A stretch of DNA of 63,981 nt, counting the filler, from Globobulimina sp. (lineage: Eukaryota), in assembly GCA_003354225.1 (NCBI GenBank). It is 50 parts of 50 records of this genome, joined end to end, with 100 filler letters (N's around TTAATTAATTAA, not from the genome) between each part and the next. Parts side by side here need not be neighbours in the genome. Positions count along the whole stretch, not along the records: positions 7,699 to 8,880 come from PIVH01021480.1; 49 more parts are not named here. One strand, written 5' to 3'. The position numbers and the translations under genes were made by a program. Positions 7,414 to 43,490 of this stretch are shown here, in pieces. The number at the start of each line of letters is the position of its first letter. The stretch's first letter is position 1. The notes under the pieces are model-generated. The model ran no database searches. It was not told the origin of the DNA and saw nothing but the letters and a program-made list of their open reading frames with translations.

Positions 7414-7698
7414 ATAAAATAATACCATAACAAAAAAATGAAATAAAATGCATTGTATGCTAATTCTATATTTTGCTTGTTTTTAGTTGATATAGTTTAG
7501 AGTTAGATTTAGATTTAGATTAATTTAACAGAAACATGTGAATAAAAAACACAACGTTTAGCAATGGTGTGTACATAACACAAAAAAGAAAAAGTCCANN
7601 NNNNNNNNNNNNNNNNNNNNNNNNNNNNNNNNNNNNNNNNNNTTAATTAATTAANNNNNNNNNNNNNNNNNNNNNNNNNNNNNNNNNNNNNNNNNNNN

Positions 7699-8641
7699 AA
7701 GCAGAAGAAATAAGGGATTTTTTAGAGTATGCAGACGACGAAGAATTTATTGCAGATAAAGTTGCAATGATATTGGGGTTAAATGGTTGTTTTCGCCCCG
7801 TCGATTATACCATGTTATTCCATCATAAATCCGATGATGAAAAAGTTATCGTTTTCGACAATAGTTAAGTTTTTGTATATTTTTATCTATTTATTTTAAT
7901 ATAATACACATATTTAACAGCAACAAAATATGGATCAAAGAATAATGGAATGCCGCGATCGCGGAAACTTATTAGATTTTATTATTGGAAGAAGAAAACA
8001 AAGAAGTTTACAAATTTTATTATTACAAACAAGAAGTCGGTGGATTTATTATTGAAATATTTTAAAACGACGAAGAAATATTGGAATGAAAAAGGCACAA
8101 TTTATGGTTCAAGAGTTTTGTGGCAAAGAAGAGGACGAAAAGGCGGTGGATATCAACATTTCCATCAACCGCTCGGTAAGGGATATTTTTATGAGAATAC
8201 GAAGAAAATTGCGCGGCATTTGGGGCTATTAAATTGGTGGCGGTATACTGGACATACAATACGACGGTCGGCGGCATCACATTATTGCGAATCTGATGTA
8301 TGTCTATGTTTATATTATCTGTTTTTATTTGAAAACATATTAAAAACACATATAAATCACAGGTAACATTATTACAATTAAAGAAATTTGGAGGATGGAG
8401 AAGTGATAAAACTGCAGAGTCATATTATGATAATTCGGTGCGGAACAAAGAAAAGGATGCGGCTATAATGAATCAAGTGATATTTGATGATGTGGAAGAT
8501 GAGGAAACTAGGAAAGAAAGGGAAAAGCAAGAAATTTCAAATCATAACACGAATAATAATGGCAATGGCAATGGGAATAATGGCAATGGGAATGGCAAAT
8601 ATTCAAATTGTAGCTTTTCGAATTGTAATTTTTATGGATGA
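7699..8641 (+). mobile_element. Crypton-type tyrosine recombinase with two introns (7864-7920, 8298-8362); 5' truncated
   Basis: Spliced product: EEIRDFLEYADDEEFIADKVAMILGLNGCFR...YTGHTIRRSAAS...LKKFGGWRSDKTAESYYDNS...NCSFSNCNF; catalytic R, HxxR, W, Y present; both introns GT-AG and frame-restoring. Confidence 0.85.
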
Positions 8642-8711
8642 AATTGGTTTTTTTTGTAAGTAAGTTTTTTGTTTGTGTTTTGCTATTTATTTCGTTTCCA
8701 TTTTATCTATG

Positions 8712-8741
8712 TAATAAAATAGAAACGTTTCTATTTTATTA
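8712..8741. repeat. Perfect 30-bp palindrome downstream of the recombinase
   Basis: TAATAAAATAGAAAC|GTTTCTATTTTATTA. Confidence 0.9.
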
Positions 8742-8980
8742 GGTATTGAAGCAATAAAGTCAGTTTTATAGTAGTCAAATAAAAGTTTTTTATAGGCGTT
8801 TTTTGGGATAAAATACTAAAAACTTGTGAATGATAAATATAAAAAAATACCGTTTCTGGTATGGATTTAGTTTCTGTCGTNNNNNNNNNNNNNNNNNNNN
8901 NNNNNNNNNNNNNNNNNNNNNNNNTTAATTAATTAANNNNNNNNNNNNNNNNNNNNNNNNNNNNNNNNNNNNNNNNNNNN

Positions 8981-9777
8981 TCACATTCCAAATTTTCTCC
9001 ATTGGCAGCAAAGATGTCATTAATGTCAGAGTCTACAACATTTTCCAGCATATCTGCACCATCCCCACCTAGACTCTGACCTTGTTCACATGGATCAGTG
9101 GGACAGTGGATGATTTGAATTGACCCGGTGCTGGCTTCACCATCAGCACATGACAAATTGAGTGTACCTGACTCCTCTTCTCCATTCAACAGACACTCAT
9201 GATTGATCAATGCTTCAGACAGTTCTTTCAGTCTCACTTCACCTTTGGCAACAAACACATCAACAAGTGTTCCATAGGAAGGAGGTAAACTGTGCAACAA
9301 AATAGCAACTTGATCTTGCTCATCAACAGGGGCATCCAAAACAGCTAACCTTTGAGCGAGTTCATTGAGCTCTTTGATATGGCATTGCATGGACTGACTT
9401 GACTGCATTTCGAAACCAAACAATTGACACTTCAGATCCATCTTATTGGGCAAAGATGATCGTTCAAAATGACCAAGCAACACTGTCCAAGCTTCATAGG
9501 GAGTGGTGACATTATGGGATACAAACAGATTGAGAAACTGTGTTGATACTGTCTGACACAAAATAGACATGACACGGGCATTATTAACAACATAGTCCTC
9601 CTGTCGATTAACAAAAGTAGGAACGTCCTCACCGGTATTCCGCACAGGGGGAACCACATGTCCAACACACAGACGCCACAGTCTTTTCACAATTAAGTAA
9701 TTTCTGATTTGCATCTTCCATATGGGCCAATTGTCACGGGTAAGTTTGTCAATGTTAGGCAGTATGTCTTCGTCCAT
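8981..9777 (-). mobile_element. Ty1/copia gag (DUF4219 + UBN2-like), 3' truncated
   Basis: IDKLTRDNWPIWKMQIRNYL...LW, AWTVL, ILLHSLPPSY, EALINHE. Confidence 0.88.
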
Positions 9778-10098
9778 GACTGTAACACAATCAACCAGCC
9801 ACAAATGTTCCAACAAACAATAGGAACTTCAAAGAGAAGACAACAGAGCAGTGAAAACGACTTATCTGGGACTTGTTTAGACAGAAATACGAAAATCACG
9901 CTTCCACATTCAACAGTGACCGATATCCAAACACAAATGAAATGGCAATCGCGTCGGCAAAATAAACCACAGAAAAATCCACAAATGTCCGAAATAATGT
10001 TTTACGAATCTTCAACAATCAGGGCAGACGACAGAAAAGAGTCTCCTTTGTCAGATTGAGAAAACAAAATTCTTGAGGACGGTTAGAATAGCTACTAA

Positions 10099-10262: not shown

Positions 10263-10737
10263 ATATCTGACGGGCCAAAGCTATTGTTTGCATTTTATCT
10301 GACGGATTTCTCATTAAAATAATGTAGTGGCAATTTCTTCGAGCAGTTTTCATATTGTCATAGAACAAATTTTGTACAATGTGAATGGCAGAACAGTTCC
10401 AGTGATGACAACCACGAGTAAACAGCGCAGTGAGTTCACCTTTTTTCTTGCTCATTTGGTCCATCAGATCATCTAAGATAAGCAGCGTAGGTCCCTGGAC
10501 AGAGTTTTTTTTTAACAGCTCCATGTTTGGCACACCTTCATAAAGCTCAACATTAGGACACCGGCAAAGGTCGTCATATGCCGGCTGATACTCTGAATAA
10601 CACCACATAACACAGACTGGAGGAGGATCGACAAGTGTTGATAAATTATTGGCAAATTTTTTTGTCCATACAGTTTTACCTGATTTAGTGCATCCAGAAA
10701 CAATAGCGGTAAACGGGTGCTTAAATCTAGAATCCAT
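10263..10737 (-). mobile_element. Polinton/Maverick/adintovirus A32-FtsK-like packaging ATPase (3' truncated)
   Basis: FKHPFTAIVSGCTKSGKT Walker A, LILDDLM Walker B, LFTRGCHH, VQNLF, NCHYIILMRNP. Confidence 0.88.
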
Positions 10738-10825
10738 GATCTTTATTGTATGTTTGTGTGTTGGGTTTCATACAGATACAACATATATTTATATACTTAT
10801 GTATACTTTTATTGGTTATATTAAT

Positions 10826-11544: not shown

Positions 11545-12583
11545 CCAACGCAATCCATTATATCTTCTGAGTCCTGCTCGTGTACACAAGACAGAAATGA
11601 ATATGTCTCCTCCGCGTCGACCGGACATTGTTCTGCTTACATGAACTGTCCATGGAATCTGGTGCCGTGTCCTGATGGGTGTTGGAAGCCAATCGGACAA
11701 AATGATTTTATCATTGGCTCGTTTGACTGGACAGGTTTTGATTATAAAGGCGAACCAACTCCGTATAGTTGGCCTGATATAAACTCACATTTTGGAGTGA
11801 ATGATATGGCGGGTATTTTTATGTTAAATTTTTAATGTTTTATATTATTTTTTGATTGTTTGTGGTGGATAAGGTTTCCCAAAGGATATGTATTGGTATT
11901 ATAGGGCGGCTTGGACCAATATTACGGATGAGATCATATTATATATTATGCCAAATACGTGGAATAATGATACGAATACAAACCCGGAGAAAGTGCGCGT
12001 GTATACCAATTGTGAATATGTGGAGTTATTTGTAAATAATAATTCTGTGAGTGGTGGACGCCAAAAAGTGGAAGCATTGGCATATTACGCATTGAATGTG
12101 CGATGGAGTTCAGGTGCGATAAGTTGTAATTGTTTAGATGCAAATAATAAGATATTGGCAAGCACGCGAATAGAAACTACCGATTCGGCGTCAAGTATTG
12201 CATTGGAATGGGAGTATCCATATAATAGTGAGAGTGCAGAGAATAATACGATAATTGGTGATGGCCAGGATGTGGCACTAATAAATGTTTTTGTGGTGGA
12301 TGATAAAATGCGAATTGTACCAAATTCAAAGAATTTAATCAGTTTCTCGGTTGATAATGAGTCTGTTGCGTTTATATTGGGAGTGAGTAATGGTGATCCT
12401 TCGTGTCATGAACGTGATAAAGCAAGTCAACGGTCTGTATATCATGGCAAGGCCAGAGTTTTGGTGCAATCAATGTTAAATAAAGGTGGTAGAGTAACAT
12501 TAACTGCAACGTCGGATGGATTAAAAACTGCCTCCATACAAATTAATGTAAATGCACCACAGCAACAAATAATTACCATTTAA
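11545..12583 (+). CDS. GH2 beta-galactosidase-like glycoside hydrolase, C-terminal part; intron 11813-11873
   Basis: SSE, GSFDWTGFDYKGEPTP..WP..SHFG..DMAG/FPKD, VYTNCEYVELFVN, GVSNGDP. Confidence 0.9.
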
Positions 12584-19465: not shown

Positions 19466-20092
19466 ATGAATGATCGCGACGTAGACTTTTTCAATCCTAA
19501 GGAACTACTAACTATTGTTCCAAGTTAATTTCTGTTGTGAACATTCTTGAATTTCTTTATTTCAAATTTGTATATTTAATGTATTTAATAATTAGATGAA
19601 AGGGAAACTGCAGTGATAACTCATCAAAAATTAACAGATATATTGAAAGAAAACAATGTGAGACCAACTGGCTTAGATTTAACTCGCGAATATTATATAT
19701 TTGAAACATTAAATAAAGTTATTTCGCATATAAACACTGGTGATATGAGTGAAAGATCAATATTATTAAAAAGAGCAGAAAGAGAGTTACATTCAACAGT
19801 ATCAACATGGAAAATATTATCAAATCAAGCAACAATATATGGATTAACCAAAGTAAATCAAAATCAATCGGAAATAGAACAATTAAAATCTGAAATTGAA
19901 CAACTAAAACAGAAAAAAAATGATCTAAGAAAAAAACGAAATTTAACAGATAAACAATATGATGACATGCTAATATCATCAAAAAATGAAATAAATGATT
20001 TACAAACAGAATGTCAAAAAACAGCGCAAAAATATCAGCAACAAAATATATCAAATACACAGATATTACAAGAATATAAATCTGCTCTTTGA
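19466..20092 (+). CDS. Divergent axonemal inner-arm dynein light chain p28 (DNALI1)-like; intron 19524-19595
   Basis: RPTGLDLTRE...ERSILLKRAERE...YG..K plus coiled coil aligns by eye to p28 RETGICPIRE...ERGLLLLRVRDE...FG.RK; intron restores the frame. Confidence 0.65.
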
Positions 20093-35902: not shown

Positions 35903-37084
35903 ATTTTAGCGGTTTCAGATGAAGGAAGATACGAATGTAAGGTGAAGGAGATTAAACTTGAAGATACGCCAATGTTACAATGTAATAAATATGAGTTTGA
36001 ATCATGTAATGTATCCGCAGTGAGTTTAGAATATTTTTGGAACATCACAACCTTTAACAATAATGACCAGGTAAAAGCTGCATTTACCATTGCACCAAAT
36101 AGCGGCAGTATCGCGCCCAAAGCAAAGCAACTATTTGTTGTCTTATTTAGTCCCAAAACACCTGGACAATATCAATGCGAATTGCAGTCAACAATAACTC
36201 CATTAAATCCACAACAATCGGCATCGCCATTGATAATACCAATAATTTGTAAGTCAACCCGACCGATTTGTCATTTTGAATTTGCTGATTTCGCATATTC
36301 AGAATATATCACCTCTGGGATTCGTAAGCCATCCGTGGTTGGCCCAAATGGTAAAATTGGAGAATCACTGCCGCCAAACATTCGTGTATTGCAAAGTAAA
36401 TCATTGGGCATTCAAGTTCGAAATAAATTACGTTTTATTGTATTAAATACATTGGATCAAAGCTATAATTTTGAGTGGAAACCGCAGAGAGTACCAAATT
36501 GTTTCCGCTGTTTAACGCTTTCTGGCGAGATATTGCCGGGCAATAAATATACGATGATATTTGAATATAAACCCAAAAAATCGGAAATAATGGAATCATT
36601 TTGGGAGTTTCATATTGATTCGCATCAATATATTGTACCATTTTTGATTGTTGGCAGTGTATTCGAACCCGATGTACGTTTAAGTCATAGTAATATTAAG
36701 TTTTTACCTCAATTGGTTGGTACCTCCTCGCTGCAAATTGTTCATATTGAAAATACAGAAAATACATCATTTGAATGGTGGATTGATAGAAATGCATTTT
36801 TAAAATCTATTGCAAAATATCGATTGTCAACGGATAACAATGAAACAGATAAATATAATAATACTGGAATGGTAATACATAAGTCAACATCTGCTGGAAT
36901 GCCATTAATTATATCCACATTTAGTGGCACCATTGAAGCAAATTCATCATTTAATATTGAATTAACATTTAAGCCATTACGCGAATTACAGTATAATTTT
37001 AATATTACATTTCATGTCAAGAATAAGCCAGGAATTACAATGTTAAATGTCAAAGGCGAAGGATTTATGATTCATCCAGAAATT
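35903..37084 (+). CDS. HYDIN: Hydin (axonemal central-pair protein), internal fragment
   Basis: Tandem ASH/Ig-like domains: FTIAP.SG.I.P, CHFE...YITSG.R, FRCLT.SG.I.PG, ESFWEF.I, PFL.VG...EP, LNVKGEG. Confidence 0.85.
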
Positions 37085-42999: not shown

Positions 43000-43490
43000 T
43001 CACCATTTATGGACATCTGGTAATTTAAAATTATCTGAGAATGATTTTAATTGCCACTGTTGCTTCCTACAAATATTCGTCGCTCTCCTTTTAAAATCAT
43101 ACATATCATATCTCGACAATGCATCCGGTAATTTATTTATTTTTGTATTAACATAACTAATATATATTTGCATTTGTTTAATCACAGCAAACATACAGAT
43201 CCACCGCAGACTCGATTGCAGGAACTCATCCCTCGCATTTTTATTATGCAGCACTGATTCACAGTATTTATTATCCGTAATTAGCATCAATTTTGTTTTT
43301 GGTTTAAACAAATGTTTAAACGTTTCCAATCCAACAATAATTGCAATCATTTCAAAATGTGCTATGGCATATTCTATCTCATACTGCTCTCTGTATGTTT
43401 TAAATACATTTGTATACTTTTTAGGTACCGGCGTCGACACAAAATTGCCTTTATACCAGACGCCAATCCCTGGACACCAGCAATTTTTAC
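43000..43490 (-). mobile_element. RNase H of an Ngaro/DIRS-like retrotransposon
   Basis: PGIGVWYKG, IAHFEMIA, TDN, NKLPDALSR; visibly homologous to the RNase H in 5268-6315. Confidence 0.88.

Follow-up and report, generated by a model that had tools for sequence, protein, structure and literature searches.

Structure of the recombinase gene

The DNA analyzed here (the window) is a stretch of 63,981 nucleotides from the Globobulimina sp. assembly GCA_003354225.1, made up of 50 separate, size-sorted contigs of 1180–1183 bp each that are chained by 49 artificial stop-codon linkers, and the subject of this study is a tyrosine recombinase gene predicted on one of them (PIVH01021480.1, positions 7699–8880; 1182 bp, guanine-plus-cytosine (GC) content 0.31). 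The linkers, 49 identical copies of the same 100 bases (44 N, TTAATTAATTAA and 44 N), lie on either side of this contig at 7599–7698 and 8881–8980; adjoining contigs are unrelated, and neighborhood readings that cross a linker are meaningless. Judged from its sequence, the contig carries a spliced nuclear gene from which about the first third, on the 5′ side, is lacking, and the predicted product of which is a two-domain, Cre-like tyrosine recombinase. An earlier examination of the same DNA without database searches (the sequence-only reading) had joined three fragments across two introns of 57 and 65 bp into one such enzyme, and its coordinates were confirmed herein: against a profile built from 18 relatives, the joined protein scored 206 bits (E = 5.7e-65), with the joint between exons 2 and 3 ungapped.

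The gene lies on the plus strand. Exon 1 (7701–7863), the 5′ end of which is cut by the contig end, encodes the end of the protein's linker region and box I, with the catalytic Arg (CGC, 7794–7796) and Asp (GAT, 7803–7805) in an R-x-x-D arrangement like that of R173/E176 in Cre; it aligns to residues 286–340 of P0007, a 553-residue relative from Nonionella, and to residues 156–205 of P0005, a gene call on an environmental contig. Intron 1 (7864–7920; 57 bp, GTTAAG..AACAG, phase 1, GC 0.14) holds an in-frame stop codon (TAA at 7866) and is followed by exon 2 (7921–8297), which supplies the β-hairpin Lys (AAA, 7995–7997), the family motifs VLWQRR and HQPLGKGYF, and the His (8253–8255) and Arg (8262–8264) within the block YTGHTIRR. 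Downstream of intron 2 (8298–8362; 65 bp, GTATGT..CACAG, phase 0, GC 0.20), exon 3 (8363–8641) encodes the Trp (TGG, 8396–8398) and the nucleophilic Tyr (TAT, 8423–8425), after which an acidic and then an N/G-rich low-complexity stretch lead to the tail SNCSFSNCNFYG (8603–8638) and the stop codon TGA (8639–8641). The exons have a GC content of 0.33–0.36, and the joined frame comprises 819 nt, namely 272 codons plus the stop. By comparison with the full-length relative P0007, the contig end cuts off approximately 285 residues at the N-terminus, the SAM-like core-binding domain among them.

Catalytic residues and similarity to Cre

The residue order and spacing expected of a tyrosine recombinase were found in the window protein, its catalytic set being complete with the spacing of Cre: R, D, K, H-T-I-R (HxxR), W and Y, of which the hairpin Lys does not vary among family members. 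The intact R, HxxR, GW and Y named in the sequence-only reading were thus all present, and the signatures FL..A.D......KVA.I.G..G..R, YTGH..RRS.A and LK..GGW.S...AE.Y, together with the NC.F tail, all read as it had claimed.

Scores in profile searches were low. Pfam Phage_integrase (PF00589) matched window exon 2 with 16.1 bits (E = 0.01; cut-off 27.1), and among the 22 relatives described below it matched 14 at E ≤ 0.01, two of them above the curated cut-off. When the family profile was compared with the Protein Data Bank (PDB), Cre was the sole recombinase match (E = 0.007), over the span from HxxR to Tyr. The AlphaFold model of P0007 had a mean predicted local distance difference test (pLDDT) score of 55, with 70–88 in the catalytic part, and a Foldseek search with this model returned Cre/Tre at the top (E = 3e-7, approximately 325 columns), followed by XerH and the Tn1549 integrase. 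It is in this modelled relative, and not in the window protein itself, that the two-domain fold (core-binding plus catalytic) was predicted; weak matches to SAM-like N-terminal domains were also obtained for P0007 and P0015.

Cre of phage P1 thus ranked first in the PDB both by sequence and by fold, with equal catalytic spacing and with Trp in place of the second His in both proteins. The two differ in that their identity is only about 17%, that the window gene is eukaryotic and spliced, and that the window protein carries additional residues from the Lys hairpin to HxxR as well as a long low-complexity C-terminal linker with a tail motif.

Evidence for the splice junctions

The support for splicing at both junctions is a homology argument throughout. 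At the second junction, P0009 from Bolivina argentea runs continuously through the point where exons 2 and 3 meet, with spacing equal to that of the joined window protein, and removal of intron 2 restores the spacing of Cre (H-to-R +3, H-to-W +26 and H-to-Y +35; H289, R292, W315 and Y324 in Cre), which no other joint does. At the first junction, the joined protein aligned to residues 286–529 of P0007 with a single 5-residue gap, and the gene calls P0005 and P0022, both from environmental contigs, have a hydrophobic junk insert at the intron 1 site, as would be expected from an unspliced intron.

Both introns also recur in a 1097-bp contig (L001), which has GT..AG introns at the two window intron sites with identical phases and lengths of 57 bp (intron 1) and 58 bp (intron 2). 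Among the sequencing runs listed for this stretch, none was of RNA. Contigs of three runs of one sample were further compared, and only one run (X1; 41% of sampled words) covered the recombinase gene. The X1 contigs keep intron 2, the second record bridging the border between exon 2 and intron 2, and no spliced joint was seen among them, as in genomic DNA.

The foraminiferal recombinase family

A HMMER search with exon 2 against 1.84 billion cluster representatives yielded 22 proteins at E ≤ 0.001, five of which reached E ≤ 1e-10, with a best identity of 44%. Organism names are attached to six of these relatives, and all six are foraminiferal (five from Nonionella stella and one from Bolivina argentea); the other 16 come from ENA, Logan or NCBI contigs of 0.6–11 kb without an organism name. 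The Nonionella and Bolivina source data sets are presumably transcriptomes. No arthropod-named protein occurred among the 22. Searches of a set of 5.8 billion proteins with the family alignment and with residues 180–500 of P0007 (E ≤ 10) returned only the first sequence of that alignment and P0007 itself, respectively, a result of little weight in view of the overly coarse word filter. The family thus appears small and isolated, being detected only in Foraminifera and in unnamed environmental contigs.

Its members share the motifs G.LR..(E/D)Y, Y(Y/W)K.K, RVFWQ.R, HGQP.G..WF, (Y/F)(S/T)GHS..R, QLK..G.WKS and A..Y, along with a low-complexity acidic/basic stretch that often includes a KKRK-like run. 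A tail of the form NC(S/T/N)(F/V/I) was read by eye in seven of the 22 relatives, in addition to the window protein and L001, and one Nonionella clade has a different C-terminal ending. The sequence-only reading had likened this tail and the other signatures to CryptonI elements of insects; that affinity was not supported, since the relatives are as described above and CryptonI is presented without a C-terminal domain in PMC3212892. From the alignments, the NC.F tail would instead be a trait of this foraminiferal family that is not documented for CryptonI. At the HxxR motif, which 19 relatives cover, nine have the canonical Arg, nine show C, S, A or P there and an Arg at the next position, and one has neither; the window protein and L001 keep Arg-Arg there.

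A tree was built from 22 rows, namely the 20 relatives of at least 110 residues plus the window protein and L001 (P0013 and P0018, being too short, were left out). The window protein, L001 and Bolivina P0009 formed a clade (support 100/99), and four Nonionella sequences formed another (98/95) with the fifth placed elsewhere, giving two lineages; each of the five Nonionella sequences falls into its own 50%-identity cluster.

Host assignment

The organism behind the assembly was approached through a fragment of the ubiquitin-activating enzyme E1 on another window contig. This fragment was 77–80% identical to proteins of Bolivina argentea (one of the matching clusters also holds Nonionella), 64–71% identical to unnamed Joint Genome Institute (JGI) proteins, and at most 50% identical to the other named eukaryotes listed, in line with the protist host supposed in the sequence-only reading. 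Its claim that the intron sizes match those of the host stood in part: the E1 gene has an intron of 56 bp with similar ends (GTTTAG..AACAG), whereas an interruption of about 193 bp was found in a GH47 gene. A mean intron length of 87 bp is tabulated in PMC13746701 for the sole foraminiferal draft genome in its table. The recombinase contig resembles the E1 gene in GC content, intron size and splice-site style. Taken together, the E1 affinity and the matching composition and intron style point to a foraminifer-like assembly and make it very unlikely that the recombinase contig is an arthropod contaminant, a suspicion also at odds with the six named relatives.

The broader idea that the gene is foreign, whether an insect CryptonI from a contaminating arthropod or an integrase of virus or polinton-like origin, draws on a language-model atlas, in which three kinds of neighbors had equal scores of 0.96 (arthropod Phage_integrase, ALOG plus Phage_integrase, and DUF3504 clusters) and the arthropod Phage_integrase cluster topped the list with 165 of 256 shared features; moreover, the contig stands alone and its organism is inferred. 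These atlas neighbors show eukaryotic-recombinase character and nothing finer, so that the arthropod hint is a lead and not a test. Against a foreign origin stand the exclusively foraminiferal names among the relatives and the agreement in GC content, intron size and splice-site style with a host gene whose nearest relatives are foraminiferal. In addition, no close relative of P0002 or P0005 was found among viral contigs in scans that detect close relatives only. We regard a foreign origin as the least probable of the explanations considered.

The window also contains flagellar genes, namely an axonemal dynein light chain at 19592–20089 (plus strand) and CFAP65 at 35903–37084 (plus strand). 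An origin from Glomeromycota, the source of Glomhopper elements, was ruled out by these flagellar genes, by the lack of a DUF3504 match and by E1, which is nearest to foraminifera.

A second copy and purifying selection

Scanning the contigs of a metagenome collection with exon 2 gave L001 as the sole relative (71% identity in the best segment). It aligns to the window contig along its full length, introns and 3′ flank included, the flank at 8642–8698 (plus strand; T-rich, possibly untranslated region) still aligning, gaps included, with 53 of 64 aligned bases identical. The reading frame of L001 reaches 22 codons further upstream than that of the window copy, and its tail is the same as the window's (NCSFSNCNFYG, then YFM), with a basic run RKRKKKKKRK. 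Exon 1 of L001 bears a 16-nt frame-breaking deletion at around position 150 (window 7764–7779), which would point to a pseudogene or else to a misassembly.

Over exons 2 and 3, L001 and the window copy encode identical residues at 113 of 163 codons (69%), and the Nei–Gojobori method gave 0.22 nonsynonymous (dN) and 1.47 synonymous (dS) substitutions per site for these 163 codons, that is, a dN/dS of 0.15. Across the opening 48 codons of exon 3, the two copies agree at 38 first, 42 second and 31 third codon positions. This low ratio together with the codon-position pattern indicated that the protein has been under purifying selection.

Further variants of the gene, 90–95% alike and with intron 2 kept, were present in X1. 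Their three listed exon-3 differences (8365, 8368 and 8413) are all third-position and synonymous in the frame as read by eye, and five further differences are listed inside intron 2. There are thus at least three diverged DNA variants (the window copy, L001 and the 90–95% set of X1), of which L001 keeps both introns and the X1 variant intron 2; no near-identical gene copies were seen among them.

Relation to Cryptons and DIRS-type elements

Crypton DNA transposons were reportedly introduced by Goodwin and colleagues in 2003, and recombinase-only elements of this type are described from fungi, stramenopiles and animals. The window gene resembles the Cryptons of Kojima and Jurka (PMC3212892) in being a eukaryotic nuclear gene that encodes, as far as the 1.2-kb contig shows, a tyrosine recombinase only, and further in its SAM-like N-terminal plus catalytic domain, its introns, its low copy number and the lack of obvious terminal repeats. 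Crypton recombinase genes with introns have been reported in the abstract of PMC13465315. The window family is a putative member that differs in matching neither DUF3504, the model of CryptonA and derived genes, nor DUF3435, and in its host group, Foraminifera, which is new; moreover, the RVFWQ.R/HGQP.G..WF block and the NC.F tail are not among the features of the Crypton groups in the sections of PMC3212892 used here. With CryptonI of insects, the window protein shares a recombinase-only composition without a large extra domain, and an arthropod cluster is its nearest language-model neighbor. The two are separated by the tail, because section 8 of the same paper describes all animal Cryptons, and with them CryptonI, as lacking a C-terminal domain, and by the absence of arthropod names among the 22 relatives.

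Crypton recombinases that became host genes or persisted as intron-bearing copies offer a second comparison, represented in the abstract of PMC13465315 by the DUF3504 genes (ZMYM2-4, QRICH1, KCTD1 and WOC) and Glomhopper, from which the present family differs in that the DUF3504 profile matched none of the scanned window and family proteins.

DIRS, Ngaro and PAT elements combine a recombinase with Gag and reverse transcriptase/RNase H (with or without a methyltransferase) and have split or inverted terminal repeats, and Crypton/Tec elements are set apart from them by having no Gag, reverse transcriptase or RNase H and a different repeat type (both from PMC4157794). That the window gene is the recombinase frame of such an element, its reverse transcriptase lying beyond the contig end, is conceivable because the upstream part of the locus is absent from the contig and because the ALOG plus Phage_integrase cluster, which is of the DIRS type, scored equally with the other atlas neighbors. 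An RT_RNaseH fragment at 43003–43488 (minus strand) also indicates that an element of long terminal repeat or DIRS type exists in the assembly; it lies on a separate contig without a link to the recombinase contig. None of the 22 relatives, however, has a reverse transcriptase, RNase H or methyltransferase domain, including the apparently full-length proteins of 553 and 604 residues. In addition, DNA copies that have diverged from one another keep two spliceosomal introns at identical sites, which would argue against spread via spliced RNA, where their loss would be expected. A DIRS-type origin is therefore improbable in our estimation.

A high-copy repeat and palindrome downstream of the gene

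Immediately beyond the 3′ flank, a high-copy stretch was found at 8699–8818 (58–177 bp after the stop codon), where the summed X1 contig depth rose to 315–925, as compared with about 5–30 over the gene and 8–18 beyond, or roughly 50–150 times the gene depth. Within it, approximately 70 bp 3′ of the gene, lies a perfect 30-bp palindrome (8712–8741), which allows a reading as two inverted arms of 11 bp with a spacer of 8 bp between them; inverted arms around a spacer are the format of tyrosine recombinase sites (PMC3212892, Background section). The arm occurs exactly in the window only at the palindrome itself, and the two further window matches obtained with two mismatches are no more than chance would give (four matches were reached in 5 of 100 shuffles).

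In other copies seen in X1, the repeat is bordered by loose ends at 8723 and 8726, the palindrome center, and by a joint at 8812; L001 terminates at the repeat start. Intron 1 (7863–7904) and the 3′ flank (8659–8724) share a T-rich stretch that is 76–79% similar, and one X1 contig joins 8812 via 23 intron-1-like letters to 7899 onward, before exon 2. This is the only go-back joint in the X1 data and falls inside the gene region; it suggests a repeat copy within intron 1 of another gene copy and not a circle junction. The repeat may be a small element in its own right or else an end that non-autonomous derivatives have in common, and non-autonomous Crypton derivatives that share element ends far outnumber the autonomous copies in section 8 of PMC3212892.

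Other features of the window

The contig to the left in the chain encodes an isochorismatase/prenyltransferase and is unrelated to the recombinase contig, and that to the right carries a copia-type gag (Retrotran_gag_2, E = 3e-27; 8983–9828, minus strand) and has a GC content of 0.41, above that of most window contigs. A weak match to a Pox_A32-like packaging ATPase (10264–10767, minus strand; E = 1.4e-5) may be a Polinton- or virus-derived piece. A glycoside hydrolase family 2 C-terminal domain with DUF4982 (11873–12580, plus strand), which forms one uninterrupted frame, may stem from bacterial contamination or from gene transfer. An Rfam scan of the window gave no match.

Interpretation

The sequence-only reading had offered a resident DNA transposon or a domesticated recombinase as explanations, a pair that is still the right one and a label right in kind. 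At a probability of about 0.5, we favor the former, namely that the gene supplies the recombinase for a Crypton-type DNA element, recombinase-only and low in copy number, that represents a new foraminiferal lineage; a domesticated gene family comes second, and a DIRS-like or foreign origin trails. The many-branched family, with its five Nonionella clusters in two lineages, suggests the pattern typical of element families, and the association with a high-copy repeat and a lox-like palindrome, with contigs ending at the repeat, likewise suggests an element. Under this reading, the spliced and translated enzyme would enter the nucleus and bind paired inverted sites, DNA would be cut and rejoined via a 3′-phosphotyrosine link and a Holliday junction, and the element would be excised as a circle and reinserted elsewhere, as proposed for Cryptons. 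The NC.F tail, following its flexible low-complexity linker, might dock onto the neighboring subunit, a conjecture by analogy with Cre and lambda integrase, whose C-terminal segments do so.

Several observations weigh against the assignment to a Crypton-type element. Neither DUF3504 (PF12012) nor DUF3435, which we take to be the model of fungal Crypton/Starship-type recombinases, gave a match at E ≤ 10 with the three window pieces and eight relatives or at E ≤ 0.01 with all 22 relatives. Within the 1.2 kb, neither element ends, where Cryptons have short direct repeats of 4–6 bp, nor target duplications nor a circle junction are visible, and the recombinase-only label for the window element is itself putative, the gene being cut by the end of a contig of 1182 bp. 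The other 49 window contigs contain no further copy of the gene, its introns or the 3′ repeat, and the depth over the gene in X1 is near the single-copy level, so that recent bursts are not indicated. Ten of the 19 relatives that cover HxxR have another residue in place of the canonical second Arg, which may mean that part of the family is not a working recombinase or that its active site has shifted. Finally, a host gene family is an equally good fit to the conserved introns, the purifying selection and the presumed expression in two further foraminifera.

Such a domesticated family, in which several paralogous Cre-like recombinases or DNA-binding derivatives would do a cellular task, is a possible but less probable explanation. 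It would account for the conservation of intron positions and phases at about 69% protein identity and for the dN/dS of 0.15, the occurrence of relatives in data sets that are presumably transcriptomes, the conservation of the tail motif and of basic runs resembling nuclear localization signals among relatives, and the low-copy depth. The loss of the second Arg in over half of the relatives examined also recalls domesticated DUF3504 genes, in which the canonical second Arg is lost according to the abstract of PMC13465315. The window copy, on the other hand, retains every catalytic residue, L001 carries a frame-breaking deletion, the family has diversified into five 50%-identity clusters within one species, and the gene is associated with a high-copy repeat at which contigs break. 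In addition, all eukaryotic tyrosine recombinases known in 2011 were encoded by mobile elements (Kojima and Jurka; PMC3212892, Background section).

A more far-reaching proposal is that Foraminifera run a host-kept Cre-like system on lox-like sites, among them the palindrome downstream of this gene, that drives programmed DNA rearrangement or elimination, so that tyrosine recombinases would do here what domesticated transposases do in ciliates; we consider this highly improbable. No paper that connects Foraminifera with Crypton or tyrosine recombinases turned up in full-text literature searches, in keeping with the remark in the sequence-only reading that none was reported in the lineage. Tyrosine recombinases are rare in eukaryotes, and a catalytically intact, intron-bearing Cre-like family under selection in Foraminifera would extend the range of hosts from which these enzymes are known. 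Such a family would also add a new lineage to studies of how Cryptons and DIRS-like elements arose, and would provide a eukaryote-native relative of Cre with a candidate lox-like site, testable as a recombination tool.

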